Under the pieces are notes generated by a model. It was not told the origin of the DNA. It did not search any database and saw only the letters and a list, made by a program, of their open reading frames with translations. Of a stretch of DNA of 64,000 bases, positions 1-15,209 are shown piece by piece. Location: the NCBI GenBank assembly GCA_003635315.1, contig PYJD01000007.1, positions 13,400-77,399 on the forward strand, written 5' to 3'. The position numbers and the translations under genes are program-made. Position 1 is the stretch's first letter, and every line of letters begins with the position of its first letter. The DNA is from Candidatus Poribacteria bacterium (GTDB lineage: Bacteria; Poribacteria; WGA-4E; WGA-3G).

Positions 1-2
1 AT

Positions 3-3000
3 AACGCTCGAAACTTTCTCAAGAATCATCAACCTAAAACTTCTCTAAAGTTATTACAGGATCTGAAAAAGCGAACGGGCAAAGATGCTTCGGATGATCT
101 AAAGTTTGGCATTCTAACAAATATGGCAGCTGCTCAGTTTGCCCTAAATAACGAAAAAGAAGCTGCAGAATTGCTTCATGAAGCATTTAAGTATGATTCT
201 GAAAACGAAAAAGCACTTTCTAACCGTGCTTTAGCATATCTCATACAAAAAGAAACGGTAAAAGCTGCTGATTACGCCAAACAGACATTGGCTAAGAATG
301 ATGAAAATACGGATGCTTATGTAATTCTCATTGGAATTGCTGAAGAGGAAGAAACACTTGACGAAGTAATTGCTAAAGTTCCCGACTATTTGCACGATTC
401 CCCACAAATTGCCTACGCTATCAGCGAATTAGCAAAACAACGTGGGAATTTTGAAGCAGCGAAAAGATGGGGTGAAATCATGGTAGACAAGGGAGACGCT
501 CCTGATTTCAAAGCTGCTTACGCAACTATCTTGATTGAGCAAGTTTTAGAAGATAATCTTGCAGTGGGGACCAGTCAACTATATAAAGCACAAAAGGAAC
601 AACTACAACGGGCAATAGAATTACTTACTGAAGCATGGAATAGCATTGCCAATACGGAATTAAGAAATTATAGAGTAGATTGGATCATTAACAGAGGAAT
701 TGCACATTTTCACCTTGGAGAACTGAAAAAAGCATCTGAAGACCTTGATTCTGCCTTAGAAATTGAAGGCTTAAATCCAAGTTTGATTAAAAAACGTGCG
801 TTATTATCTTTTGAGTGTGGAGAAATAGCAGAAGCAATTGAATTATTGCAATCAATACAATCCGCACCAGAAGTTCCAGATGCTCCCATTATCCTTGCTA
901 ATTTTCTCTTAGCAGATGAACGGTTAGATGAGTCTATTACAATACTTAATGATTTTTTGCAGACAGATTTGACACCAGAACTTAAAGAAAAAGCAATGCT
1001 TCTGCTCATTAAAGCATATATTGGTACTGAACGTATTGAAGAGGCAGAGCAAATACTAACACCGATGCTCGAATCATCTCCGACAAGTGTATTAAATCTC
1101 ATTAATGCTGCTCAAATTTCGAGTAAATTGGGAAAAAAGGACAAGGCTGTTTCTCAACTTAAAAAAGCGTACAATTATGCATTAAATAGCAATGATTTTT
1201 TAGAAATAGTGGATTTAGCTTCAGAACTCTTTATCAATAAACAATTCAAAGAAGCTGCTACGTTTTACGAAAAAATTACTGACACAAGCCAGAACTCCCA
1301 ATTGACACAATGGTTAGTACAAAGCTACTATAATTCCGGCGAATTTGAGAAGGCACTTAAGATATGTCAGAAACTTCGTGATAATTATGGTCCACTTGAA
1401 AACATATCCGTGATGGAGGTCGTGATTTATGAGGAAATCGGCGATATGAATCAAGCCGAAACTGTATGTAAAGAGTATATAGAAAAATTTCCAACTGATT
1501 ACGACATGCAAATCCGTCTTGGTATGATTCTCATCCGATCATCTAAAGAGACTGAGGTGGATAATGTGTTAGATACTTTTTCTGAAATCAAAGACTTTTC
1601 ATATGTAAATGATCTTTCTTTGCAAGGATGCTTTGAATTAGCTTTGTTACATCAAATGAGATTTCAACATGAAAAAGCACTCAATATAATGTATGAAGTG
1701 CGAAGAATGCATTTCCATCAACCCGATGCACACCTTTTATATGTCAAGGTTTTCCTTTCAGTTGAAAAGGAAATTCCTGAAGTGCTAAAACCTACTCAAG
1801 TTGAAAAGGATACAGCAGTCAAAATCGACAATTCTGATGAAGACAATTGGTATATCATTGAAAAACGAGAAAATGTAGATCTCAACCGCCATGAATATGA
1901 TGTGAATCACTCTTTTGCTAAAAAATTAACAGGGAAAAACATCAATGACGAGGTGAGTTTCGGTGAAAAAATGTCCGGTATAAAAACTGGAAAGATCGTT
2001 GATATCAAGAGTAAATACGTTCATGCATATCAAGAAACATTAAGAAAATACTCGCATTTGTTTCCATTAGACCAGAACATGGATAATATAAAAATTGACG
2101 ATTCAGATGGAATCGACGATAAAGAAAGATTTGAAAAAATATTTGAATTGATTAGTAAGAGACAAGATGAAATAAATAAATTTGAAAAACTATATAAAGA
2201 AAAAAAACTTACAATCGGTACTTTCACAAAATTCGTCGGAAGTAATAGTTTAGATACATGGGGATCTCTCATGGGTAACCCTGAATTAGGGATTAGATGT
2301 AGTATGGGAGATATTCAGGAAAGAAGCAGTATCCTTAACCGACTTAATGAATCCAAACCTAAACTTGTTGTAGACATTATTTCACTAATCACTTTACACA
2401 GTTTGGATGCTGCGGATATTGTAGTCAATACGTTTGGAAAACTCTGCATTGCTCAATCGACTATTGATGAATTACTGAGTATTATCAGTGAAAGAGAGGG
2501 AATGTGGTTTAATCGCGAGGGAATGGTAGTTGGTAAAAAAGGAAATCGGTATGTAAAACAAATTATCAATCCTGAGGAAATGAAGCAGGGAATAGAATAT
2601 ATAAAAAAGATTGTTCACTGGATTAGGGAGAACTGTGAAGTTGGCGAAGCCACTGTTGGGTCAGAGATGAACCAATTACGCAGGAGGGAACTCAATGACA
2701 TGCTACAACAGCATTTCCTTGATACTATTATTCTTGCAAGCCAACCCGGACACCTACTTTTCTCGGATGATGGACGACTCAGGCATTATGCAAAAACAAG
2801 CCTAAATAACGACGCTGGCACAAACTTTCAAATTGACGGTGTGTGGGCACAAGTTTTATTGGAGCATTGTGTTAAGCAAAATCTCCTTGATAAAGTTGAT
2901 TACAATGAGATGACGATAAAACTTGTTTGTTCAAATTACTATCACACGCAATTTGATGCCGTTTTGTTAATGGAAGTAGCAAAACGTTCAAATTGGAAAC

Positions 3001-3686
3001 TCTCTGAACCTTACAACAGTTTTGTGCTTGCCTTAGGTAGAGAACGCATGAATCTGCAAACAGCATTAGACGTGGCAGTTGATTTTCTTTATAAACTTTG
3101 GGATGAATCAATTTTATTTAGACAAAAAGAATTCTTGACATTGGGTTTATTAACTGGACTTACTTATGGACGGAATGCACACAAAGTATTGAACCGACTT
3201 GAAAATTTAATTCAAAATAAGCATAGACATTTTTTGCCCGTCGAAAACAGTATTCTCAAACGAATCGATGAATTCAAACAAATCTATCCTCTCGAAGATA
3301 ACTTTACGTTTTTGGCAGAAGATGATATTCGTCTTAAAGGAACGCGGGTAGGTATTGAAACTATCCTATACGAATATATTCACAATAGTAAATCACCAGA
3401 AGTAATTGCTGAACGCTACTATCATTCACTCACAGTGGAACAGGTTTACGTCACGATCCTATATTATCTTCAAAATCAAGAAAAAGTTGGTACATATTTG
3501 GATGATTATATTAAATTTTGCCAAACGGCACGAGAAGAACAGGCGAAAAATCCACCACCCGGAGTTATTCGCCTGCGTGAACTTATAGCAGAAAAGGAAG
3601 CAAATTCGTATATACCCGAGCCTACCAATCCAGAAATAGACGCAGCAAGTACTACACAATCCCCAACAGATAATGAATTGGGATAA
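3..3686 (+). CDS. TPR-repeat protein with GreA/GreB C-terminal-like domain, PIN nuclease domain and C-terminal DUF433 domain (5'-partial)
   Basis: The frame is open from base 3 (NARNFLKNHQPK...) into the 123..3686 ORF, so the true start lies before the window. TPR-like helical repeats are followed by a GreAB-C-like segment (HEYDVNHSFAKKLTGKNINDEVSF, ~1790-2010). PIN acidic motifs follow (LVVDIIS, STIDELL, LDTIILA, LFSDDGRLR, ~2355-2810), then DUF433 (DDIRLKGTRVGIETIL...SLTVEQVYVTILYY, ~3291-3603). Confidence 0.8.
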   Translation, partial: NARNFLKNHQPKTSLKLLQDLKKRTGKDASDDLKFGILTNMAAAQFALNNEKEAAELLHEAFKYDSENEKALSNRALAYLIQKETVKAADYAKQTLAKNDENTDAYVILIGIAEEEETLDEVIAKVPDYLHDSPQIAYAISELAKQRGNFEAAKRWGEIMVDKGDAPDFKAAYATILIEQVLEDNLAVGTSQLYKAQKEQLQRAIELLTEAWNSIANTELRNYRVDWIINRGIAHFHLGELKKASEDLDSALEIEGLNPSLIKKRALLSFECGEIAEAIELLQSIQSAPEVPDAPIILANFLLADERLDESITILNDFLQTDLTPELKEKAMLLLIKAYIGTERIEEAEQILTPMLESSPTSVLNLINAAQISSKLGKKDKAVSQLKKAYNYALNSNDFLEIVDLASELFINKQFKEAATFYEKITDTSQNSQLTQWLVQSYYNSGEFEKALKICQKLRDNYGPLENISVMEVVIYEEIGDMNQAETVCKEYIEKFPTDYDMQIRLGMILIRSSKETEVDNVLDTFSEIKDFSYVNDLSLQGCFELALLHQMRFQHEKALNIMYEVRRMHFHQPDAHLLYVKVFLSVEKEIPEVLKPTQVEKDTAVKIDNSDEDNWYIIEKRENVDLNRHEYDVNHSFAKKLTGKNINDEVSFGEKMSGIKTGKIVDIKSKYVHAYQETLRKYSHLFPLDQNMDNIKIDDSDGIDDKERFEKIFELISKRQDEINKFEKLYKEKKLTIGTFTKFVGSNSLDTWGSLMGNPELGIRCSMGDIQERSSILNRLNESKPKLVVDIISLITLHSLDAADIVVNTFGKLCIAQSTIDELLSIISEREGMWFNREGMVVGKKGNRYVKQIINPEEMKQGIEYIKKIVHWIRENCEVGEATVGSEMNQLRRRELNDMLQQHFLDTIILASQPGHLLFSDDGRLRHYAKTSLNNDAGTNFQIDGVWAQVLLEHCVKQNLLDKVDYNEMTIKLVCSNYYHTQFDAVLLMEVAKRSNWKLSEPYNSFVLALGRERMNLQTALDVAVDFLYKLWDESILFRQKEFLTLGLLTGLTYGRNAHKVLNRLENLIQNKHRHFLPVENSILKRIDEFKQIYPLEDNFTFLAEDDIRLKGTRVGIETILYEYIHNSKSPEVIAERYYHSLTVEQVYVTILYYLQNQEKVGTYLDDYIKFCQTAREEQAKNPPPGVIRLRELIAEKEANSYIPEPTNPEIDAASTTQSPTDNELG

Positions 3687-3849
3687 AATAACGCAATAAG
3701 TAGTTTGGGATTGAGGGAAATTTTAGAAAATCGCTCTGTCCCTTAATTTTATTAAGTTTTGGCTTGTTTAATTTAATATTTACATAAAATGGGGCGGTAA
3801 CCGCCACCCCACTCCATGAAACAGAATTGCTCCACAAAGGAAAGTTGCA

Positions 3850-4920
3850 ATGAATTCTTATGAAAGACATGAACTAAAGGATTACGAAAATGCAAAACTA
3901 CGAGTTCCATTTGCCTTTGATGAAGAGAGGTTATGCGCCCCTAAGACAGCAGAGAAGGGGAAACATTATTTTTGTCCAGGTTGTCAAGATACAGTGATTC
4001 TAAAAAAAGGTGAGGTGAAGGCGGCGCATTTTGCTCATAAGGCAAGTAAAACTTGTAATCAGGAAACGATTGTTCATAAGACTGCCAAAAATCTAATTGT
4101 TAAGATGATTTCTGATTGGAAGGCGGGAAAGACTGAGTCACCCAAATTGAGAAGGAAGTGTGGATTTAAATTTGATTTTGGCCTTTATGGTGAGAAAACT
4201 TGTGAAGAAACCTGCGATCAACCTATGCCTGATAAAGTAGAGCAAGCGGTTACAGAATATAGGATGTCTAATGGATTTATTGCAGATGTCGCTTTAATGG
4301 TTGAAAACGAACCTGCTCTTGCAATAGAAATCAGGGTCACACATGCTGTAGATGAAAATAAGGCACATTCGCTTTCAGTGCCGTTTATTGAATTGGATGG
4401 ACACACAGTCTTAGAAAAACCTAATCATTTTGATCCAATTCGTGACAACAAATTGAACCCATTTACTTGTAATACATGCAAGCATGCTGAACCCAAATTT
4501 GAGGACAAAGTTACCAAGGTTGTCAAGCAAACTCGTATAAAACTCCCTGACCGTGATAGCTGTTACTACCGATATGGAATTGATAAATGCTGGAATTGTC
4601 AACGCGAAATTATCTTATATACTTGGCCTGGAGATGACTGGGATACCTCACCCCCTAAGAAAAAACCGATCCCACAAACGATTAAATTTTGTTATTCACG
4701 AACTATTGGTCACAAGTATTGGGCTAACACTTGTCCATGCTGCAAGCGGATTCAAGGGGATTTTTTCCTATATGGATCTAATTTGTTTCCTTTTTCCAGA
4801 AATGACATGGTGGATTCGCCAGATGCATATCGTCAAGACATGCAAAAGATCGTGTTTTGTGCCAGGTTTAACAGGATGCTTGAAAAAACTAATCCCGCAT
4901 CTACTCATTGCGTAAAATAA
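3850..4920 (+). CDS. CoiA-like PD-(D/E)xK nuclease family protein with Zn-binding motifs
   Basis: N-terminal FCPGC...HFAH and ETIVHKTAK; nuclease core EYR...IADV...AIEIRVTH; C-terminal CWNC and CPCC Zn-ribbon motifs. Confidence 0.7.
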   Translation: MNSYERHELKDYENAKLRVPFAFDEERLCAPKTAEKGKHYFCPGCQDTVILKKGEVKAAHFAHKASKTCNQETIVHKTAKNLIVKMISDWKAGKTESPKLRRKCGFKFDFGLYGEKTCEETCDQPMPDKVEQAVTEYRMSNGFIADVALMVENEPALAIEIRVTHAVDENKAHSLSVPFIELDGHTVLEKPNHFDPIRDNKLNPFTCNTCKHAEPKFEDKVTKVVKQTRIKLPDRDSCYYRYGIDKCWNCQREIILYTWPGDDWDTSPPKKKPIPQTIKFCYSRTIGHKYWANTCPCCKRIQGDFFLYGSNLFPFSRNDMVDSPDAYRQDMQKIVFCARFNRMLEKTNPASTHCVK

Positions 4921-5903
4921 TGTCAGATAATCCTCTCGTGAATCTTGAAGGTTTAACAAAACCTGTTAGCGACCTGGGTATAGCTCTAATTGATAAAATA
5001 GGGGATGCTACAGGCATACTTTATGAACCTACACGCATCAAACGAAGAGCTAAAGCTGAAGCCAAAGCTGCAATGATTCAAGCTGAAGCCAAAATTGAGA
5101 TAACCGATCTGCAACAACGCGCAGTACGTCGTTGGATTGAAGAGGAAGTACAACGTCAGGAAAGCATTGAAAACATCATTACAAAATCATTCAACAAGTT
5201 AAACGAAGATGCAGATCCTAATGCAATAGAGGACGATTGGATAATCAAATTCTTTGATAAATGTCGATTAGTAACCGATGATAATGTGCAAGATTTATGG
5301 GCAAGCATTTTAGCAGGTGAAGCCAATAGTGCGGGATCTTATTCACCTAAGACCTTGACAACTTTAGCAGATATGAACCAAAAAGATTTGATCTTATTTA
5401 ACACTTTTTGTTCGTTATGCGTCGTGTATTTAGAAAACCCTGATGTATTTCTGAAGTCGCCATCTACTTTTAAAATTAGAACGGCGAGAGTTCCTGTATT
5501 AAGAGGCAGTATAACCGATGTGGCTACCCTTACGGGTCGTCCTAATCAGGATATGGATAAATTTGCTCGAAAATCTAAGTCTATATATCAAGAATATGGT
5601 TTTGGTGCTGACGAGTTTCAATTATTGTCAGAACATGGACTTATCCTAGATGAAACCTATAGTGCATACTCACATTTTTGGTATAATAACGAACTCTATT
5701 TACCTGTGAATCCATCTGCTAATTCCCCATTTAATGAAGAAGATTACCAACAGATTAATATAACAGGATATTGCTTATCTTCCGTTGGGAGAGAGTTATT
5801 CCATATCACAAAACGTGACAACCCACCTGAATATCTTAAACATCTAATTGATTTTTTACAAGAATATTACAGTGTAAAAATAGTTAAGATCTCTAAATCG
5901 TAG
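4920..5903 (+). CDS. DUF2806 domain-containing protein
   Basis: Motifs EEVQRQESIENI, DDWIIKFFD and LWASILAGE...GSYS..TL..L. The ATG at 4920 overlaps the upstream TAA (TAATG); the track starts at 4908. Confidence 0.7.
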   Translation: MSDNPLVNLEGLTKPVSDLGIALIDKIGDATGILYEPTRIKRRAKAEAKAAMIQAEAKIEITDLQQRAVRRWIEEEVQRQESIENIITKSFNKLNEDADPNAIEDDWIIKFFDKCRLVTDDNVQDLWASILAGEANSAGSYSPKTLTTLADMNQKDLILFNTFCSLCVVYLENPDVFLKSPSTFKIRTARVPVLRGSITDVATLTGRPNQDMDKFARKSKSIYQEYGFGADEFQLLSEHGLILDETYSAYSHFWYNNELYLPVNPSANSPFNEEDYQQINITGYCLSSVGRELFHITKRDNPPEYLKHLIDFLQEYYSVKIVKISKS

Positions 5904-6044
5904 AATTTTACACAACAGATTTTTTAGAAAGAAGAGAAAGCTGATTAAAATGGGTCTTGATGAAAAACACAAACTAAGAATTGATATGAGAATTAGAAAA
6001 GCCAGCTATCAGTGATTTTTTATGATTCTTATCGAAGACATACA

Positions 6045-7280
6045 ATGAAAAATATGAATTTACCAGAGCATTGGAAAGTCATACGACTATCGAATCAAGA
6101 TTTATTCAGTTTTGAAAATGGTATTTGGAAAGGAAAAAAAGCACCATTTGAAGAATGTGCTGTTGTAAGAAACACTAATTTTACCAGTGACGGATACCTT
6201 GACTTAACAGACGTAGCAGTCTTACCTATAGAACAAAGGTATTTGGATAAGAAAAAACTGAAATGGGGTGATATTGTTATTGAACGATCTGGAGGCGGTC
6301 CTGAGCAACCCGTTGGTAGAGTAGTGTTCTTTAATATTAAAGATGGTATATATTGTTTTAGTAATTTCACAAGTCGGTTGAGAGTAATTGATAAAAACAC
6401 AATTACCCCTATTTACCTATTTTTCTATCTTCTGTATTTGCATGATTCAGGTCAAACAAGGAAATTGCAAAAACGTACGACAGGGATACGTAACTTAATT
6501 TTTGGAGATTACAAAGAATCCGAAATCCCCCTTCCTCCACTCCCCGAACAACGCGCCATTGCCCACATCCTACAAACAATCCAAGAAGCAAAGTTCACCC
6601 GAAAACGCGAAATTGAATTAGAACGGGAACGCAAAGCAGCGTTGATGGATTATCTCTTTACACACGGCACGAAAGGTGAACCCCACAAGCAGACGGAAAT
6701 CGGCGAGATTCCTGAGAGTTGGCAAGTGACAAAGTTGGGTGACTTAGTAAAGTTGAAAAGTGGGGAGTCACGTCCAAAGGATATAAAAAATAAACCCGAT
6801 TCCGAGCGAACTATTCCAGTATATGGCGGAAATGGCATTTTAGGGTATACAACCAAAAAGTTCAGCGATCAAAGGCTTCTTGTAATTGGACGTGTTGGCG
6901 CATATTGCGGTTGTGTCCATATAGCGGAGTGCCCTAATTGGATTACTGATAATGCTTTATATCCAGAGAAATGGTTTTGCAATGAAGTTTCTCTTGATTT
7001 TCTTGCAGAACAATTAAGGCACTGTAATTTGAATAAACTTCAAAGGAGAGGAGGACAACCATTGATCACACAGAGCATTCTTCATCAATTCAAAATACCG
7101 CTACCCCCACTTTCAGAACAACGCGCGATTGCCGAAATATTACAAAACTTTGAGAATAAAATTGCAGCCCTTGAACGAGAAGTTGAACTCATAGATGAAC
7201 TCTTCCACGCCATGCTTGAAGAACTGATGACAGGACAACGGTCTGCTGTCCCACTGATTGATACCAAATTGCCGAACTAA
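6045..7280 (+). CDS. hsdS: Type I restriction-modification specificity subunit
   Basis: Two TRDs, each followed by the conserved PLPPL.EQRAIA motif, with central KQTEIGEIPESW. Likely ATG at 6045 (track GTG 6012). Confidence 0.95.
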   Translation: MKNMNLPEHWKVIRLSNQDLFSFENGIWKGKKAPFEECAVVRNTNFTSDGYLDLTDVAVLPIEQRYLDKKKLKWGDIVIERSGGGPEQPVGRVVFFNIKDGIYCFSNFTSRLRVIDKNTITPIYLFFYLLYLHDSGQTRKLQKRTTGIRNLIFGDYKESEIPLPPLPEQRAIAHILQTIQEAKFTRKREIELERERKAALMDYLFTHGTKGEPHKQTEIGEIPESWQVTKLGDLVKLKSGESRPKDIKNKPDSERTIPVYGGNGILGYTTKKFSDQRLLVIGRVGAYCGCVHIAECPNWITDNALYPEKWFCNEVSLDFLAEQLRHCNLNKLQRRGGQPLITQSILHQFKIPLPPLSEQRAIAEILQNFENKIAALEREVELIDELFHAMLEELMTGQRSAVPLIDTKLPN

Positions 7281-7491
7281 CAGATGTCCTCGACAACAAA
7301 CGTGGTCTTGTAAAAATAATATTACATAATGATTGTGTGCTTCCACTTTCGCAACTGAATACCTCTGGTGAGATGTTGTAGTCGGTTGCGATTTTGGGTA
7401 TGATATGCTAAAATTCCACACAGGATTTTAGTAGACGACCCAATTAACAGCAGAACGCTTGAAATTAATTGAGGATGGGATAGACAGCAAA

Positions 7492-9075
7492 ATGAGATGT
7501 TTTGAAACGCGTGGTCCTGTATATCCTGAAGATAACTACGTCGTTGCACGCACAGACGAACTTTCGGATTTTGTCAATCGGTTGGAAAAGGGACGGTATA
7601 TCGTCCTTTTTGCCCCACGGCAGACAGGAAAAACCACGTTCTTCCGCAGTGCTTTAGATAAGCTCGCAGCCGAGACGTATTTCCCAATTCAGATTGATTT
7701 TCAAGCGTCCAACAACCTTGAACCTTTCGAGTTTTATGAAGGCATTTACGACGATATTCGCGAGGAGATAGAGAATGTTTTTCAAAGACGCGGCAGCATG
7801 CCTTCTGAAGCTTTAGAGCAACTTTTAGACAACACAAAACTCACCAACCATCTTTCTATGCGAAGGTTTTTTAGGCGACTTTCAGATGTGCTGGAAAATC
7901 AGAAGGTTGTCCTGATCATTGACGAATTTGACGGTATCCCCCGGACGGTTGTAAGCGATTTTCTATATACACTCCGCCACATCTACCTCTCCAGAAAGCA
8001 TCGATCCCCACATACCGTCGGCATCGTCGGGGTCAAGAGTATTACCCAGCTGAACTACGATCGCTCTATTTCTCCCTTCAACATCCAGGATGAGTTCAAA
8101 TTGCCCAATTTCACCCTGGATCAGGTGCACGAGCTGCTTTCGCAATACACAGAAGAAGTGGGGCAGCCCTTCGATCCCGCGGTTATTGAATCTATTCACA
8201 AACAGACTGCTGGACAACCCGTACTCGTCAATCGATTCGCGCAGATCCTTACAGAGGAATTGGACATTGCCAAAAGTGACCCAATCACAATGCAACACTT
8301 TTCAAAGGCACATGTCCAACTTCTTCGCGAAGGACATACGAACATTGATCACCTGATAACCAATATCCGTAGGAATCGACGGTTTGAGTCGCTCCTTATG
8401 AAAATCGCATCTTATGATGAAGGCACAGAATTCAACCTTTACAATGAACTCATCAATGAACTCGCCACTTATGGTGTCATCGCCGAAGGGGATGACGGTA
8501 TGTGTGAAATTGTCAATCCGATTTATCACTATTGCATCATACGGGCATTCAAACCGATAGTTAATGGATTGGAGCAGGAATATTTACCAGAAGACAATCG
8601 CGCAGGATTTCAGGACTACCTCACACCGGATGGTCAGATTCAGATGGCAGCACTTCTTGACAACTTCCGTGACTTTATTGCACGCGCAGGCTTCAAGATT
8701 CTACAAGTGCCAGACACACCCCGAGAATATGTTGGGCAGCACCTTCTCTTTGCCTATCTGGAGCAGTTTGTACAGATTGTGGGTGGGACGTTATATTTAG
8801 AAGTACAAACAGGACGCGGCAGAATAGACATCCTTATCCTTCATCATCAAAGAAAATACATCGTTGAAACAAAGATCTGGGGAGGCGAAATACGTTATCA
8901 GGCAGGTAAGACACAACTCGCTGCGTACGTTAAACTCGAAAAGGCAGTAGACGGATGCTACGTCGTGTTTGACCATCGTAAAGAGCCAGAACCCCGCGTA
9001 GAGACAGAGATACTCGACGGCTCTACAATTCGGAGTTATGTGATTCCAGTAATACAAGAACGTCCATCGACTTGA
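7492..9075 (+). CDS. AAA-like (AAA_35-type) ATPase with C-terminal PD-(D/E)xK nuclease-like domain
   Basis: Walker A FAPRQTGKTT, Walker B LIIDEFD, C-terminal EVQTGRGRIDIL...IVETK. ATG at 7492 gives the family-typical N-terminus MRxFxTxGPV. Confidence 0.8.
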   Translation: MRCFETRGPVYPEDNYVVARTDELSDFVNRLEKGRYIVLFAPRQTGKTTFFRSALDKLAAETYFPIQIDFQASNNLEPFEFYEGIYDDIREEIENVFQRRGSMPSEALEQLLDNTKLTNHLSMRRFFRRLSDVLENQKVVLIIDEFDGIPRTVVSDFLYTLRHIYLSRKHRSPHTVGIVGVKSITQLNYDRSISPFNIQDEFKLPNFTLDQVHELLSQYTEEVGQPFDPAVIESIHKQTAGQPVLVNRFAQILTEELDIAKSDPITMQHFSKAHVQLLREGHTNIDHLITNIRRNRRFESLLMKIASYDEGTEFNLYNELINELATYGVIAEGDDGMCEIVNPIYHYCIIRAFKPIVNGLEQEYLPEDNRAGFQDYLTPDGQIQMAALLDNFRDFIARAGFKILQVPDTPREYVGQHLLFAYLEQFVQIVGGTLYLEVQTGRGRIDILILHHQRKYIVETKIWGGEIRYQAGKTQLAAYVKLEKAVDGCYVVFDHRKEPEPRVETEILDGSTIRSYVIPVIQERPST

Positions 9076-9177
9076 TGGAAGTTGCCTTGACACAGTATCT
9101 GCCATATAATCTAATAGTTGAATAAGATGAGTCATATTAGACGGCATCGTTACAATATTCACACTTATCAATTTTTC

Positions 9178-9206
9178 TTGACAAACGAAATTATCAGTGT
9201 TAATAT
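9178..9206 (+). promoter_or_regulatory. Sigma70-type promoter upstream of hicA
   Basis: TTGACA (9178-9183), 17 nt, then TG-n-TAATAT (9201-9206). A second candidate is TTGCCT-N17-TATAAT at 9082-9110. Confidence 0.55.
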
Positions 9207-9302
9207 TATTATCACACAGAAAACAATTTGGGTATACAAGCGTAACGCGCTATTGTATCTGTACAACGCTGCAGTTGTAAGAACGTTGGATAGACTGGGG
9301 TT

Positions 9303-9488
9303 ATGAAGTATAGAGATGTCATAAAACTTATCGAAGAAGATGGGTGGTATTATACAAAGACACGAGGCAGTCATCGCTATTTTAAGCATCCAACAAAAGT
9401 GGGAAAAGTGACAGTTTCAGGTAAAATGGGCAAAGATGTTCCAAAGGGTTTACTCAACCGCATTCTAAAACAAGCAGGACTCAAGTAA
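9303..9488 (+). CDS. hicA: HicA family toxin (type II TA mRNA interferase)
   Basis: 61 aa with the family pattern ...GWYYTKTRGSHRYFKHP...GLLNRILKQAGL; the catalytic GSH histidine is retained. Confidence 0.92.
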   Translation: MKYRDVIKLIEEDGWYYTKTRGSHRYFKHPTKVGKVTVSGKMGKDVPKGLLNRILKQAGLK

Positions 9489-9502
9489 TGAGGGATAAAC
9501 GA

Positions 9503-10885
9503 ATGGAATATGTTGTAATTTATGAAAGAGGAGACACCAGTTATGGTGCTTATGTTCCTGATCTCCCAGGATGCTTTGCTGTAGGTGATACATTGGAAGA
9601 AGTCCAGACATTAATTGATGAAGCAATCGAATTTCATATTGAAGGATTACAAGAAGACGGTGACGATGTTCCTGAACCCTCTATAAACATCCCTGTTCAG
9701 TATGATATTCCATATCTTGGTAAACACAAAGTCATTGAAAACTATGTATATAATGATGATCCTGCTCTTTTTTCTTGTAAGAACTCTGCCGGACAACTCC
9801 ACCTTGTAGCTGTTGGGAAAAACGATCAACATAAAACATGGCTCCGTGTTGGCATCTCTAATGTACGGTTTAATTATATCCGCTCTGGTGGATTAGAACT
9901 ACGTAGTGTTTTCACCGATGCTGGGTATGGTACTCTACTGCAGGTAAGAGTGCCACACGACGATTCTATAAAACCTTCACTGGAGGTCATCCATCCCAAT
10001 GAAATCCCTGAGGACCTACTCCCGCTTCCAGGTGAACGACTCGGTCTAAAAACCGAAACTCTTCCAGCACTCAGCAATGCACAAGAAATAGCTTCATCCA
10101 GTGCCCGAGAACTTGTGAATTTTGCCTTCAATTTTGGTGGAATTTTCAGAACAGAAGCACCGGTCGACTTTTTAGGTAATATTCTAACCGGATTACAACA
10201 AGTTATTAACAGAATCGGTGCGAAGTGTGTTAATTCAACATCTAAAAAGATACCTGAAGACATCAAAAGCAGTATGGGGATCTCACTATTAGAAGTTGGT
10301 GCAGGTTCATTTGAGATTCAACTTGCATCGACAGAGTATGTTGGTATATTGAAAGAGTCTGAACTTGGAAATTCAATAAATGAATTTGTCAAAATCCTGA
10401 ATTCTGGTTCTAACGAAGACGAACTAAAATCACTCATGGATCAATTTGGACCAAGAGTTGCAAAGGGGTACACTAATTTCCTCAAACCACTGAGTGAATC
10501 CGTTATAGACACCAAATTCACTTGGACATCTCCACATCCCGACCGTGGTGGAACAGCAAAACTTACGCAATCCCAAATAATAAATGCGATTGATATTCTT
10601 GAGAAAATTCAAGAAGAAACATCTGAAAAAATCACCATACGCGGCACTTTAGTAGGTATCTCTGTCAGAGATAAAACATTTCAGTTAGAAACGTCTGATG
10701 ATAACTATTATGAAAGAGATTTCTTTAAAGGAAAGATCACGGATGAAGCTTTTGAGACTGAAATCGTTAAGAATGCTACAGTAAACAAGCAATATACTGC
10801 AGAAATACAAGGATTCGCTCAAATTGGCGAGACCAAAGATGAAACCAATATTAAATTCAGACTACTTAGTCTCAATAAAAAGTAA
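9503..10885 (+). CDS. hicB: HicB antitoxin domain fused to a DUF6575-like domain and an uncharacterised C-terminal region
   Basis: Residues 1-60 are canonical HicB (YGAYVPDLPGCFAVGDTLEEV...EAIEFHIEGL...VPEP). The frame then continues about 390 aa without a stop. The segment LGKHKVIENYVYNDDPALFSCKN...WL..IS..R resembles DUF6575. Start is 9488 (TAATG overlap) or 9503 (GAGGGA RBS). Confidence 0.75.
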   Translation: MEYVVIYERGDTSYGAYVPDLPGCFAVGDTLEEVQTLIDEAIEFHIEGLQEDGDDVPEPSINIPVQYDIPYLGKHKVIENYVYNDDPALFSCKNSAGQLHLVAVGKNDQHKTWLRVGISNVRFNYIRSGGLELRSVFTDAGYGTLLQVRVPHDDSIKPSLEVIHPNEIPEDLLPLPGERLGLKTETLPALSNAQEIASSSARELVNFAFNFGGIFRTEAPVDFLGNILTGLQQVINRIGAKCVNSTSKKIPEDIKSSMGISLLEVGAGSFEIQLASTEYVGILKESELGNSINEFVKILNSGSNEDELKSLMDQFGPRVAKGYTNFLKPLSESVIDTKFTWTSPHPDRGGTAKLTQSQIINAIDILEKIQEETSEKITIRGTLVGISVRDKTFQLETSDDNYYERDFFKGKITDEAFETEIVKNATVNKQYTAEIQGFAQIGETKDETNIKFRLLSLNKK

Positions 10886-10909
10886 TCCGACTGCACCTTA
10901 GATATAGAT

Positions 10910-13783
10910 ATGTCTGAACGTTCCGTAGTCCAAGACCCACTCTTCCAATACGCCAACGAAATCGGCTGGACACAAGTCACCCGCACAGAAGCCATGCAGA
11001 TGCGGGGAGGAAATACTTCCGCACTTTATTTTCAAGAGACATTAAAATCACAACTCATAAAACTAAACAAAGGAATCATAGACGACTCCAATTGTGCCGA
11101 CGTAATACGCATACTCAACTTGCTGAAACCCACACTTGAAGGCAATCAGGATGCACTTGCTTGGATACACGGAGAAAAATCAACCTTTGTTGCAAGTGAG
11201 AACCGAGAACGTAACGTTACCCTGATAGATTTTGAAAACCCCGACAACAACCAGTTCCATGTCACCGATGAATGGGAACAGCAAGGCACAGTCCACCGCA
11301 ACCGCGCCGATGTAGTTTTTCTAATAAATGGCATCCCTATAGCAATCGTAGAAGCGAAATCTGTACATAAACGTGACGGATTAGCACTCGGTGTTGAGCA
11401 GATACATCGTTATCACAACGAAACACCAGAACTGTTCACAACAGCACAACTCTTTGCTGTCACACAACTCACGGATCTATTCTATAGCGTAACGTGGAAC
11501 ACCAGCAGAAAAAATCTGTTCAACTGGAAAACTGACGAACCGACCGACTATGAACAGAAGATAAAGACATTTTTCGACCGCGACCGGTTGCTCCAGACAC
11601 TGCAGCAATCCATCGTATTCCAAAGTAGAGATGACCAACTCACCAAAGTTGTGTTGCGTCAACATCAGAACCGTGCCGTGGAAAAGGTAATCGAACGGGT
11701 GAACGATCCTGACAAACGACGTGGTCTTGTTTGGCACACACAAGGCAGTGGTAAAACCCTTACAATGATAACGATTGCAGCACAACTCCTGCGTGGCGGA
11801 ACACAGACAGAAAAACCGACCGTGCTCATGCTTGTTGATCGCAATGAATTAGAAAGCCAACTCTTTAAGAACATCACCGGATACGGCATCACATCGCCGA
11901 GAGTTGCACAGAGTAAAGATGATCTGGAAGATATTCTATCCAAAGATTATCGCGGTTTGGTCGTGTCAATGATACATAAGTTCGACAAGAGACCCGCGAA
12001 CCTTAACACCCGTGAGAGTGTGGTTGTGTTGGTAGACGAAGCACACCGAACAACCGGCGGGGATTTCGGTAATTACCTGATGGGTGCTCTTCCAAATGCG
12101 ACTTATATCGGATTCACCGGTACACCCATTGATAGTCTGAGCAAAGGTGAAGGCACTTTCAAAGTATTCGGCAGTGATGACGCACAGGGGTATCTCGACA
12201 AATACGCAATCACAGAATCTATTGAAGACGGCACAACTGTTAAATTGAATTACATGCTTGCCGCCTCCGATTTACGGGTAGATAGAGATGTATTAGAAAG
12301 CGAATTCCTAAACCTCGCAGAAGCAGCAGGCGTTAGCGATCCTGATGAACTAAATGCAATCCTTGACCGTTCTGTTCGGCTAAAGGAGATATTAAAAGCA
12401 CCTGCACGTATAGAACGAATAGCCGAGTGTGTTGCGGAACACTTTCAAAATACTGTAGAACCGATGGGATTCAAAGCCTTTTTAGTTGCTGTTGACCGCG
12501 AAGCATGCGCGTTGTATAAAAAAGCACTTGATAAATACTTACCCGCTGAATACTCGGAAGTCGTCTATTCAGATGACAACCGAGATTCTGAGTTAATGAA
12601 ATCGTTTCACCGCACATCGGAGCAGGAAAGGGAGGTCCGTAAGCGATTTGTCGATAAGGGTGCACAACCGAAAATACTGATTGTAACACAGAAACTACTC
12701 ACAGGATTTGATGCACCGATTCTTTATTGCATGTATCTTGATAAACCGATGCGCGACCACGTGTTGTTGCAATCTATTGCGCGTGTCAACCGTCCCTATG
12801 AGGATGCGGACGGACTGGTAAAACCTGCCGGATTTATATTGGATTTTGTCGGTATCTTTGAAAACATGCAGAAGGCACTCGCTTTCGATTCTGATGAGGT
12901 GGAGAGCGTTATTCGGAATATTGATCTGCTCAAGGAAACATTCACGAGGATGATGTGCGAAGATGCTCAACAGTATTTGCCGTTAGCAACGGGTTCGGAC
13001 GATAAAGCCAAGGAACAAGCAATTGTACATTTTGAGGATAAGGATGTTCGGGAAACATTTTTCACGTTCTTCAAAACATTGCAAAATCTCTATAACATCT
13101 TGTCCCCCGATGCTTTCTTACAGCCGTTTATAGCGGATTATCAGGCACTCACATCTCTTTTTGGACTCATCCGCAACGCATTTTCTACACAACTTTATGT
13201 CCACAGGGAGTTGACAAATAAGACACGAAAACTCTTGCAAGATGAAACTGAAGGTGAACTATTTGCATTACCAAACGAGGTATATGAATTGAATGAAACC
13301 ACCTTGCAGAGATTAGATCAGAGCGATATGTCTGACACATTAAAAGTCTTGAACTTGGCAAAAGCAGTACGTCAAAAGGTTACCGAGGAGGGTGAGTCAA
13401 AACCTTTTTTGATTTCTATTGGTGAACGTGCAGAAGCAGCTATAGAAATATACGACAGTCGTCAATCAGAAACAAAAGACGTACTCACCAAACTACTTAA
13501 TGAGGCAGCAACAATTTCACGCGCTGAAAGAGAACAACCCCGAATGGGATTAGATGACAATTCTTATGCAGTCTATACTGTTATGAGTAATGCTATGGAG
13601 ACTGTTACACCGGAACAGGCGCGGTCCGTTAATCAAGTATTTGAACAGTTTCCCGATTATCAATGGGATCAACATCAAGAAAGTGAGTTAAGAACGACAC
13701 TCTATAAGACATTGGAACCATCAGTTGACTTTCGCACCAAAATAGAAATAACGAACAAATTGTTGGATTTACAGCGTCTATGA
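10910..13783 (+). CDS. hsdR: Type I restriction enzyme R subunit
   Basis: Nuclease motif RADVVFLINGIPIAIVEAK, Walker A WHTQGSGKT, DEAH box, and helicase motifs GFTGTP, LLTGFDAP and QSIARVNR. Confidence 0.95.
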   Translation: MSERSVVQDPLFQYANEIGWTQVTRTEAMQMRGGNTSALYFQETLKSQLIKLNKGIIDDSNCADVIRILNLLKPTLEGNQDALAWIHGEKSTFVASENRERNVTLIDFENPDNNQFHVTDEWEQQGTVHRNRADVVFLINGIPIAIVEAKSVHKRDGLALGVEQIHRYHNETPELFTTAQLFAVTQLTDLFYSVTWNTSRKNLFNWKTDEPTDYEQKIKTFFDRDRLLQTLQQSIVFQSRDDQLTKVVLRQHQNRAVEKVIERVNDPDKRRGLVWHTQGSGKTLTMITIAAQLLRGGTQTEKPTVLMLVDRNELESQLFKNITGYGITSPRVAQSKDDLEDILSKDYRGLVVSMIHKFDKRPANLNTRESVVVLVDEAHRTTGGDFGNYLMGALPNATYIGFTGTPIDSLSKGEGTFKVFGSDDAQGYLDKYAITESIEDGTTVKLNYMLAASDLRVDRDVLESEFLNLAEAAGVSDPDELNAILDRSVRLKEILKAPARIERIAECVAEHFQNTVEPMGFKAFLVAVDREACALYKKALDKYLPAEYSEVVYSDDNRDSELMKSFHRTSEQEREVRKRFVDKGAQPKILIVTQKLLTGFDAPILYCMYLDKPMRDHVLLQSIARVNRPYEDADGLVKPAGFILDFVGIFENMQKALAFDSDEVESVIRNIDLLKETFTRMMCEDAQQYLPLATGSDDKAKEQAIVHFEDKDVRETFFTFFKTLQNLYNILSPDAFLQPFIADYQALTSLFGLIRNAFSTQLYVHRELTNKTRKLLQDETEGELFALPNEVYELNETTLQRLDQSDMSDTLKVLNLAKAVRQKVTEEGESKPFLISIGERAEAAIEIYDSRQSETKDVLTKLLNEAATISRAEREQPRMGLDDNSYAVYTVMSNAMETVTPEQARSVNQVFEQFPDYQWDQHQESELRTTLYKTLEPSVDFRTKIEITNKLLDLQRL

Positions 13784-14148
13784 AAACCGAGGACGTATTA
13801 AACAATACTACAGATTTGAAAAGTGAAGTGTGGCGGTGGGCAGACTGCCTCGGTGTTAAGGTGCACGAAGTTCACGTACGTCAGATGCGACGGAAATGGG
13901 CGTCTATATCAACCAATGGTAGATTGACACTCAACACAGAATTACTCAATCTGCCCGCGCAATTAGCGGAATTTGTCATTGTGCATGAATTGGTGCATCT
14001 ACTTGTACCGAATCATGGGAAATTATTCAAAGGATACATGTCAGCATATCTCCCAGATTGGCAGGAACGACAGAAGTGCTTGAACGAAGAAGGAATAACT
14101 GGTTTAGGTAAGAGTTTAGAAGCGTGTAAGACCTTATCGTGTGAATAG
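13780..14148 (+). CDS. Short M48-like (YgjP/DUF45) zinc metallopeptidase family protein associated with type I RM
   Basis: RQMRRKWAS...VIVHELVHL..PNH motif; overlaps the hsdR stop (ATGA). Confidence 0.85.
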   Translation: MKTEDVLNNTTDLKSEVWRWADCLGVKVHEVHVRQMRRKWASISTNGRLTLNTELLNLPAQLAEFVIVHELVHLLVPNHGKLFKGYMSAYLPDWQERQKCLNEEGITGLGKSLEACKTLSCE

Positions 14149-14234
14149 GGTGTTGTATGTGAGTGTGTCCTATCCGTGAAATCCACTATTCAAACAAGAA
14201 AGCATAAAATACTTCTTGTCAATGAATACAGATC

Positions 14235-15209
14235 TTATCCAAGAGAATTCTCAAGCTCCTTAATCATCTTTGGAACTTGTAGCATCATATTATATTGCTT
14301 CTTAAGTGAATTCTGATGGGATGAAACCCAAGAAAGGGCATTCGCTACATCATAGATGTTCTCTGCAGGTTGTGCCCCAGGAACAATACCTTCCAAAGAA
14401 ATTCTAATCATATAACTATCTTTATTCTCTTCGGTATTCTTATCTTTAAATCTTGTAATCTTGGCATCTTGCCCTGTTTCTAAAATACTATATACTCTTT
14501 CAGCATTCCTGCGTCCCCATCTATCAGATACTATAGTATCAATCCAGTTCTGTAGTATTTCTACATCTGTATCAGCATTTAGTTTTTTCTGATTCCATTT
14601 TGTATATACTTCTTTTTCTCGTTGAATTTTTGAGAGGTTTTCACTTAGATATTCAACAAATAATCCTGGATTTAAAGACTTGGTATGGCGTTTACTAAAT
14701 CTACTCTCTGTCTCTAAACACATAAGTCCGTTCATACAAATCAGTCTATACCATGATAACTCAAAAGCTAATGGGGCTGTTCCATCTACGGAGTTCCTAA
14801 CATGCAACTGAGGTATGAGTACATGACCATCGCCGGGATCAAATTTAAATCCCTTTGAGATTTGTATTTTCAACCACATACACTCACCGTATTCAGTTAG
14901 ATACAGGTTGCACTCGGTTTCATCTATGTTATAACCCAGCTTTTCAAATGCTATATGAATAATCTGAAGTATCTCGGAATGTTGAATTAGAGAATATGAC
15001 TTAGATACTGTTGCGACAGGTGTGCCACCGTCTGAAGTATTTACGACTACATCAAAGTGTTTATTCTCTGCACCATCTACATTGAAAGGTCGTTTCGTAA
15101 AAACAGATATATACTCTGCAATGTCTACAAGATTACCTTTATGCTCATTAACTAATCTACTGTCCCATTTGAAATTATTTAGATGGTATGTATTATCTAA
15201 AGTATTCAT
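14235..15209 (-). CDS. DUF932 domain-containing protein
   Basis: VATVSKSYSLIQHSEI, RNSVDGT and YRLICMNG motifs typical of the DUF932 family. Confidence 0.75.
   Translation of the reverse strand: MNTLDNTYHLNNFKWDSRLVNEHKGNLVDIAEYISVFTKRPFNVDGAENKHFDVVVNTSDGGTPVATVSKSYSLIQHSEILQIIHIAFEKLGYNIDETECNLYLTEYGECMWLKIQISKGFKFDPGDGHVLIPQLHVRNSVDGTAPLAFELSWYRLICMNGLMCLETESRFSKRHTKSLNPGLFVEYLSENLSKIQREKEVYTKWNQKKLNADTDVEILQNWIDTIVSDRWGRRNAERVYSILETGQDAKITRFKDKNTEENKDSYMIRISLEGIVPGAQPAENIYDVANALSWVSSHQNSLKKQYNMMLQVPKMIKELENSLG

Follow-up and report, generated by a model that had tools for sequence, protein, structure and literature searches.

A DUF433 antitoxin fused to a TPR-GreA/B-C-PIN conflict protein of Candidatus Poribacteria, and the probable replacement of its DUF5615 toxin gene by cargo

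What is the role of a complete antitoxin-like protein at the C-terminus of a large defence protein when no toxin is encoded beside it? This question is raised by the first gene in a 64,000-nucleotide stretch of contig PYJD01000007.1 from a Candidatus Poribacteria bacterium (positions 13,400 to 77,399 of the forward strand), the whole of which is referred to here as the window. Positions 3..3686 on its plus strand form a single uninterrupted open reading frame (ORF) of 1227 codons, open at the 5′ end, which represents the last 1227 codons of a protein of approximately 1470 residues of the TPR-GreA/B-C-PIN (TGP) type, named after its tetratricopeptide repeats (TPR), its GreA/B C-terminal-like domain and its PIN domain. 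The missing 5′ part of about 245 codons lies outside the window, as judged from full-length homologues of 1465–1475 residues. An initial annotation, made from the sequence alone, had recognized this architecture and a DUF433 protein fused to its end, had noted that no separate PIN partner followed, and had proposed either that the captured antitoxin restrains the internal PIN domain or that the fusion is a recent accident. The reading which we consider likely is a different one: a DUF433 antitoxin was fused once to a TGP conflict protein, the cognate DUF5615 toxin gene is found downstream of the fusion gene in relatives, and in the window that gene was replaced by cargo.

With regard to the nature of the C-terminal tail, which starts at residue 1097 (nucleotide 3291), 1683 proteins of stand-alone size were retrieved when its 131 residues were used as the query. 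Among these, the best 120 were 100–210 residues long and 57–84% identical over 75–100% of the tail; most had been annotated beforehand with PF04255, and some were named as DUF433 domain-containing proteins. Some of the closest or longer matches are probably fragmentary gene calls of TGP genes, and the top “stand-alone” match, P0121, proved to be one, being a gene call on the end of a 1472-residue TGP-DUF433 ORF that was directly followed by a 118-residue DUF5615 gene. The alignment with stand-alone proteins began at their residue 2 or 3 (MQIEDYFNFLAEDD versus PLEDNFTFLAEDD; MQIEDYFNFLAEDDIRIKGTR versus YPLEDNFTFLAEDDIRLKGTR), so that at the DNA level the stand-alone start ATG-CAA-ATT-GAA-GAT corresponded to TAT-CCT-CTT/C-GAA-GAT in the fused genes, and it extended through a C-terminal extension with the motif EEY/QxKNPPPGVxRLRxL up to a Ser/Thr/Pro-rich end. 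The tail is hence a whole DUF433 antitoxin minus its start codon, just as the initial annotation had suspected.

Structure prediction was in line with this assignment. The AlphaFold2 (AF2) model of the tail (predicted local distance difference test, pLDDT, of 76.8) comprised a beta-hairpin, three short helices, two long helices (H74-97 and H101-117) and a disordered end. A Foldseek search with this model placed the DUF433 protein 2GA1 first (probability 0.95, TM 0.53), with helix-turn-helix (HTH) regulators next, and a profile of the tail family also ranked 2GA1 first among PDB sequences, albeit with a weak E value of 0.16; neither phmmer of the tail against the PDB nor NCBIfam yielded a match. 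We thus distinguish three segments on the plus strand: a DUF433 core with the beta-hairpin and a three-helix HTH-like bundle (residues 1097–1158, positions 3291..3476), which is delimited by PF04255, the stand-alone homologues, AF2, Foldseek and the comparison of hidden Markov models (HMMs) with the PDB; the antitoxin C-terminal extension with the two long helices, including EEQAKNPPPGVIRLREL (residues 1159–1203, positions 3477..3611), which appears in the AF2 model and is common to the stand-alone DUF433 proteins of 111–150 residues; and the disordered Ser/Thr/Pro-rich end (residues 1204–1227 plus the TAA stop at 3684-3686, positions 3612..3686), with pLDDT values below 50 and also present in stand-alone homologues. 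By analogy with type II antitoxins, the extension helices (residues 1159–1203) would constitute the toxin-binding region. An internal start producing free antitoxin was also considered and rejected, as the junction codons are CTC or CTT and no ATG, GTG or TTG is conserved there. Without a conserved internal start at the junction, the antitoxin exists only within the full-length protein.

The fusion turned out not to be peculiar to this assembly. When residues 600–1227 were used as the query, 318 proteins were found, and the best 120 of them were 72–82% identical over the full query including the tail, with lengths mostly of 1461–1475 residues; the tail HMM matched all 120. At the level of the whole family, 2551 TGP relatives were recovered when 1.84 billion representatives (50% identity) were searched exhaustively. 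Ordinary TGPs are about 1200–1450 residues long, and their match ends at query position ~495 of 628 (residue ~1095), where the proteins themselves end. Among the best 150 of the 2551 representatives, only four carried the tail, all of them fragments of the clade to which the window protein belongs. This clade consists of Candidatus Poribacteria, which are sponge symbionts. In a phylogenetic tree, 128 fused tails formed one clade (support 0.88) apart from 82 stand-alone proteins. Pairwise dN/dS of the tail was approximately 0.28–0.30; these values are medians, and in two loci (L008 and L012) the longest-ORF rule had picked the wrong gene. Neither a stop nor a frameshift interrupted the reading frame at the junction, be it in the window, in the ten loci whose junction was compared by a motif scan or in the 120 tail-bearing homologues, and metagenome contigs crossed nucleotide 3290 without gaps or indels. 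Since the tail is present in all of the 120 homologues listed, is monophyletic and is under purifying selection, the option of a recent accident fails. The fusion was a single, old and selectively maintained event.

A partner for this antitoxin was found next door in the relatives. In 15 of 15 related loci, a gene for a DUF5615 PIN-like toxin (31.8 bits on PF18480, cut-off 23.8) starts 2 nucleotides after the TGP stop codon. These loci comprise L003-L012, L025-L028 (including P0055, P0004 and P0001, which are closest overall to the window) and L029, the single further locus obtained from a metagenome scan (JGI metagenome). The layout in L003-L012 is TAA, 2 nucleotides and the ATG of an ORF of 116–119 residues beginning with MRRFLIDENISPEYR, and in all loci the toxin frame differs from that of the TGP gene. 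Similarly, in the sponge metagenome runs X1, X7 and X9, tail contigs continued beyond nucleotide 3687/3688 into ATGCG(T/C)CGGTTTCTCATAGACGAAAAT, a continuation (ATGCG(T/C)CGG..) that encodes MRRFLIDENI; support from X9 is weaker, as its contig reads GATACG.. at the start codon. In most loci, the TGP gene and the toxin gene are situated together in a type I restriction-modification locus, with hsdM on one side and hsdS on the other, and in L003 and L028 the same pair is flanked by a DUF6785 gene and rpe, in surroundings devoid of restriction-modification genes. The occurrence of the same pair in two contexts indicates that the two-gene module moves as a unit.

The same genomes also harbour a stand-alone pair, in which a DUF433 gene of 150 codons is followed, 2 nucleotides after its stop, by a 119-residue toxin that is about 75% identical to the TGP-linked toxins (judged by eye from the alignment), together with orphan stand-alone DUF433 genes without a toxin (P0136 and P0166). 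Separately, we observed that, in several genomes of Poribacteria, an Eco57I-like restriction-modification gene is directly followed by clustered stand-alone paralogues of the tail (111–150 residues; L001, 4001-4399; L015, 1577-1903 and 3001-3815; L016, 3001-3336), some with a DUF5615 partner 2 nucleotides past the stop and some orphan. These genomes contain the TGP fusion as well, and cross-talk among antitoxins and toxins is therefore conceivable.

In the window itself, the observation of the initial annotation that no separate PIN partner is present held true: tblastn detected neither a DUF5615-like nor a DUF433 partner in the 64 kb, and no co-oriented toxin gene adjoins the TGP gene. As a statement about the system, it did not hold in any of the 15 relatives. 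Comparison by blastn and alignment located the difference precisely. Nucleotide synteny with the relatives ends at 3687/3688, immediately after the TGP stop, and resumes at ~6040, at the start of hsdS (6012..7280, plus strand; specificity subunit of the type I restriction-modification system, identified by PADLOC Specificity_I with an E value of 1e-39 as well as by blastn and alignment). The distance from the TGP stop to the resumed synteny is 0.42 kb, with the toxin gene included, in the relatives, versus 2.35 kb in the window. In place of the DUF5615 toxin gene and the spacer, the window contains 2.35 kb of cargo (3689..6039, plus strand) without any toxin remnant.

Two ORFs on the plus strand make up most of this cargo, a CoiA_N-like zinc-finger/nuclease-type ORF of 356 residues (3850..4920; PF25164 CoiA_N, E value 7e-14) and a DUF2806/TIGR03899-like ORF of 331 residues (4908..5903; PF10987, E value 6e-31; TIGR03899 below cut-off), which overlaps the former by 13 nucleotides. 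PHROGs and NCBIfam gave nothing decisive on these genes, and a record look-up of the CoiA-like protein found none. No homologue of window positions 3687-4910 was detected in any related locus, and in no other related locus did a CoiA-like or DUF2806 ORF lie beside the TGP gene. A 94%-identical CoiA-like gene was found in run X7 on a separate contig and in another context, the TGP contigs of that run continuing into the toxin gene. DUF2806 homologues of other Poribacteria occur in unrelated, mobile-looking contexts, as in L019, where one is located beside GIY-YIG and ParA genes. The sequence GCAATAAGTAGTTTGGGATTG, with which the cargo begins on its left side, showed no repeat copies, either in the window or in the relatives’ loci compared. 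Between the TGP stop and the CoiA-like start, we also noted a G+C-rich imperfect inverted repeat at 3793-3815 (GGGGCGGTAACCGCCACCCC), which is not followed by a T-run.

Variable cargo between the toxin gene and hsdS is likewise seen in relatives, with a methylase, a GHKL ATPase and Mrr in L025, and an FRG-domain gene plus unknown genes in L026. The site behind the TGP-toxin pair is an exchange slot, and the exchange that occurred here removed the toxin. Secondary loss of the toxin gene is therefore the best explanation for the missing partner in the window. More generally, the content of the hsdM-hsdS gap differed among the loci inspected (window 1-15000; L004, L005, L025 and L026), consisting of the TGP-toxin module alone, of this module plus extra genes (a DNA methylase in the case of L025, among others) or, in the window, of the TGP gene with the CoiA-like and DUF2806 ORFs. 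Directly after hsdS, at window positions 7459-9075, lies a 538-residue ORF with an AAA_35/AAA_22-type ATPase and a C-terminal NERD/PD-(D/E)XK-like nuclease domain, which is kept at 89% nucleotide identity in L004.

As for the TGP portion of the protein, the presence of TPR, GreA/B-C and PIN modules expected from the initial annotation was confirmed. All of the following segments lie on the plus strand. The TPR region spans residues 1–590 (3..1772; Pfam TPR_19, TPR_14, TPR_2, TPR_1, TPR_16 and ANAPC3). The stretch between the TPR region and the PIN domain had no Pfam match, and it was resolved by an AF2 model of residues 600–1095 based on a 41-sequence family alignment (mean pLDDT 89.5, predicted TM score, pTM, of 0.78). 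In a Foldseek comparison of this model with the PDB, a stretch of approximately 70–75 residues superposed on the C-domains of GreA, GreB, Gfh1 and Rnk with probability 1.00 over 70–79 columns; the structures matched were 2PN0, 1GRJ, 2P4V, 3AOH, 2EUL and 3BMB, at a root-mean-square deviation mostly of about 2 Å and of 5.7 Å for Rnk (3BMB). The GreA/B C-terminal-like domain is annotated at residues ~600–690 (1800..2072); since the Foldseek output came without query ranges, the superposed part was placed at residues ~600–675 from the beta-rich secondary structure of the model. A helical linker, defined by the AF2 secondary structure and conserved across the TGP family, connects it (residues ~691–788, 2073..2366) to the TGP-type PIN domain (residues 789–931, 2367..2795), which was recognized by PF20698 “PIN-TPR-GreABC” (Pfam; E value 3e-27, 96 bits, cut-off 27.8) and by column conservation. 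In the 41-sequence alignment, D791 of the PIN domain was invariant and D822, D907, D922/D923, T797, S921 and R927 were nearly so; all of these residues are present in the window protein, and the four acidic motifs (D791, D822, D907 and D922/D923) are accordingly intact, as the initial annotation had stated. A C-terminal helical domain (residues 932–1096, 2796..3290), which is all-helical in the AF2 model, precedes the tail, and its end is the point at which canonical TGPs terminate, as deduced from the extents of the matches to representative TGPs of ~1300 residues. PADLOC had no model for the TGP protein, and NCBIfam yielded only sub-threshold TPR-type matches to it.

The N-terminal region of about 245 residues that precedes the window was inspected in relatives (L003, 984-1720; L028, 5001-5735). 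Its first segment, MxILxLVFxxYxIVGTGFSIAGGI, is hydrophobic and rich in Gly; helices and a coiled-coil-like stretch come next. This region is situated where TGP systems carry a variable effector or effector-associated domain (EAD); the relatives’ sequences showed no match to Pfam, to PDB sequences, or to a known effector or EAD.

A mechanism that would accommodate these results can be proposed. The TGP gene is itself carried as cargo within the type I restriction-modification locus. In this clade, a whole type II antitoxin (DUF433/COG2442, VapB-like) was fused once to the C-terminus of the TGP protein at the antitoxin’s own start codon, and the cognate DUF5615 toxin gene remained directly downstream in the arrangement TAA, 2 nucleotides, ATG. 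The tail most likely binds and neutralizes the DUF5615 toxin, so that the 1470-residue defence protein itself would be the antitoxin. The toxin might then serve as an extra effector arm, freed upon triggering or degradation of the sensor protein, or the pair might form an addiction lock by which loss of the immune gene is hindered; the fusion, its conservation and the gene order are observed facts, and binding, neutralization and release are inferred. In the window, the clean replacement of the toxin gene by the 2.35-kb cargo has left the TGP protein intact but its antitoxin tail orphaned, and this tail would be either vestigial or able to neutralize paralogous DUF5615 toxins encoded elsewhere.

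A stricter version of this proposal, which we regard as possible, if doubtful, assumes a “completion lock” or dead-man switch, in which the toxin is neutralized only if the whole sensor is made and remains intact. It follows from where the antitoxin is encoded, namely in the final 130 codons of a 4.4-kb gene, with a translationally coupled toxin behind it. If such a lock existed, shut-off or destruction of TGP by a phage would free the toxin and lead to abortive infection, and a nonsense mutation, frameshift or deletion in the costly immune gene would be lethal. The window would then represent a natural escape, in which the toxin was deleted first and early relaxed constraint followed. The substitution pattern can be read in this light. 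Among 120 homologues (the best 120 of 318), the window protein ranked 4th to 9th for changes at conserved columns across the TPR, PIN, helical and tail regions. An analysis of dN/dS and lineage-specific changes detected no decay specific to the tail in the window, with little power if the loss was recent. The extra conserved-column changes may reflect a long, poorly sampled branch (best identity 78.6%) or mild relaxation.

Several observations weigh against the reading of a fused antitoxin whose toxin gene was lost in the window. On its own, the tail scored 21.8 bits on PF04255, just below the cut-off of 23.6; the fused tails of relatives reached 18.8–23.6 bits, and three re-scanned stand-alone homologues of 111–150 residues, 60–65% identical to the tail, scored 33–38 bits, above the cut-off. 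The match of the toxin to the DUF5615 model covers the first half of that model only. The tail is intact in the window even though the toxin is gone, and may thus have a toxin-independent role. Furthermore, the window’s own TGP-to-cargo junction was present in none of the public sequencing runs, the best of which contained relatives only, and an exact-match scan of genome contigs with a 60-nucleotide sequence spanning this junction returned no match.

The last point bears on the possibility that the missing toxin is an assembly artefact, or that the toxin was relocated within the same genome, so that the system would be of the ordinary two-gene form. We judge this to be very unlikely. The source is apparently an assembly of an uncultured organism, and the junction was found in no public run or collection, which would fit such a case. 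However, the TGP gene on the left and hsdS on the right are both syntenic with the relatives, so that a simple assembly chimera is unlikely and two compensating mis-joins would be required, and relatives L025 and L026 have variable cargo at the corresponding site as well. The persistence of the tail, in turn, could be accounted for if it were mainly a toxin-independent DNA- or RNA-binding HTH module, involved in autoregulation of the locus or in helping TGP to engage nucleic acids or transcription complexes. DUF433 has a three-helix DNA/RNA-binding fold, the Foldseek matches other than 2GA1 were HTH regulators, VapB10 binds its own promoter (PMC3834315), and toxin-less stand-alone paralogues do exist (P0136 and P0166), as does the toxin-less tail of the window. 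This explanation is nevertheless improbable in view of the retention of the toxin in 15 of 15 relatives and of the conservation, along with the core, of the C-terminal extension, typically the toxin-binding part of antitoxins; moreover, the original promoter of the toxin-antitoxin (TA) pair is no longer upstream of the antitoxin.

The remaining explanation is the one advanced by the initial annotation, according to which the tail restrains the TGP-type PIN domain of the same protein, folding back onto it, and releases it only upon triggering of the TPR/GreA-like sensor, so that no separate toxin is needed. Both partners would be PIN-like nucleases, and the tail has stayed intact in a 64-kb window devoid of any other PIN partner, with only three changes in columns showing conservation of 95% or more. 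Nonetheless, 146 of the best 150 TGP representatives (out of 2551) possess the same PIN domain without DUF433, all 15 tail-bearing relatives keep a translationally coupled DUF5615 toxin, PF20698 and DUF5615 are different PIN families, and it is DUF5615 with which stand-alone homologues of the tail pair. With a cognate toxin encoded 2 nucleotides downstream in the relatives, the tail has an obvious partner and a brake on the internal PIN domain is not needed; we therefore found no support for this model and attach little credence to it. Loss of the toxin gene downstream of a fused antitoxin remains the reading that we prefer.

If this reading is correct, its implications extend beyond the window. 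The TGP family is widespread, and anti-phage activity has been shown for one member only (Agp, with Bab). A clade in which TGP is the antitoxin of a PIN-like toxin would make toxin release a simple genetic read-out of the loss or triggering of the sensor, and would exemplify the recruitment of a TA pair as an extra effector or as a device against the loss of immune genes. The toxin-less variant of the window shows that the partner is not required for the fusion protein to persist, and that the position directly behind it acts as a slot exchanging defence cargo. For the window itself the result is more sober: the best explanation for an antitoxin in cis without a toxin is that the toxin gene was lost secondarily.

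The individual components of this system have been described before. TGP conflict systems were defined by Kaur, Iyer, Burroughs and Aravind (2021, eLife; PMC8195603) and correspond to Pfam PF20698; in their proposal, GreA/B-C docks on RNA polymerase, PIN cuts transcripts and a variable N-terminal effector acts as a back-up (PMC8195603). Abortive infection in E. coli ECOR25 is mediated by Bab/Agp, in which Agp is the TGP protein; upon sensing phage T5, it triggers Bab (bioRxiv 10.1101/2024.11.07.622273). The window protein shares with these the TPR repeats, the GreA/B C-domain, the family PIN domain with conserved acidic residues and the location in a defence island, and its relatives share the variable N-terminal region, of about 245 residues. 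It differs from TGPs in its C-terminal DUF433 and, in relatives, the coupled DUF5615 gene, both restricted to this Poribacteria clade. Furthermore, published TGPs are described as mostly stand-alone genes with a variable effector at the N-terminus. For the N-terminus of this clade, no match to a known effector or EAD was obtained.

On the antitoxin side, members of COG2442/DUF433 have been predicted to counteract PIN toxins (PMC2701414, PMC5499597). Experiments on VapB10 of the Synechocystis VapBC10 system, a DUF433/COG2442 protein, showed that it neutralizes its PIN toxin by complex formation, binds its promoter and is degraded by ClpXP (PMC3834315), and further examples are VapB45 (Rv2018; PDB 5AF3) with the PIN family gene Rv2019 (PMC5499597, PMC2701414) and Ava_0674 (PDB 2GA1; PMC2701414). 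The tail resembles these in being a full-length homologue of stand-alone antitoxins, and the toxin of the relatives shows the tight spacing of TA operons. In contrast to such pairs, the antitoxin lacks its own start codon and promoter, being produced solely as the C-terminal 130 residues of a 1470-residue protein, and in the window the toxin is absent.

Among the papers searched, none described a TGP-DUF433 fusion and none mentioned “DUF5615”, and DUF433 is absent from the main text of the TGP paper. The idea of joining an antitoxin moiety to a larger sensing protein, with toxin release responsive to infection, is shared with CapRel(SJ46), in which toxin and antitoxin are reportedly fused and a phage capsid protein is sensed. 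The system described here differs from it in that the antitoxin belongs to an independently recognized multi-domain defence protein with a nuclease of its own and the toxin is a separate gene. TGP systems and DUF433-PIN pairs being already known, the window’s own contribution is the toxin-less variant of their fusion.

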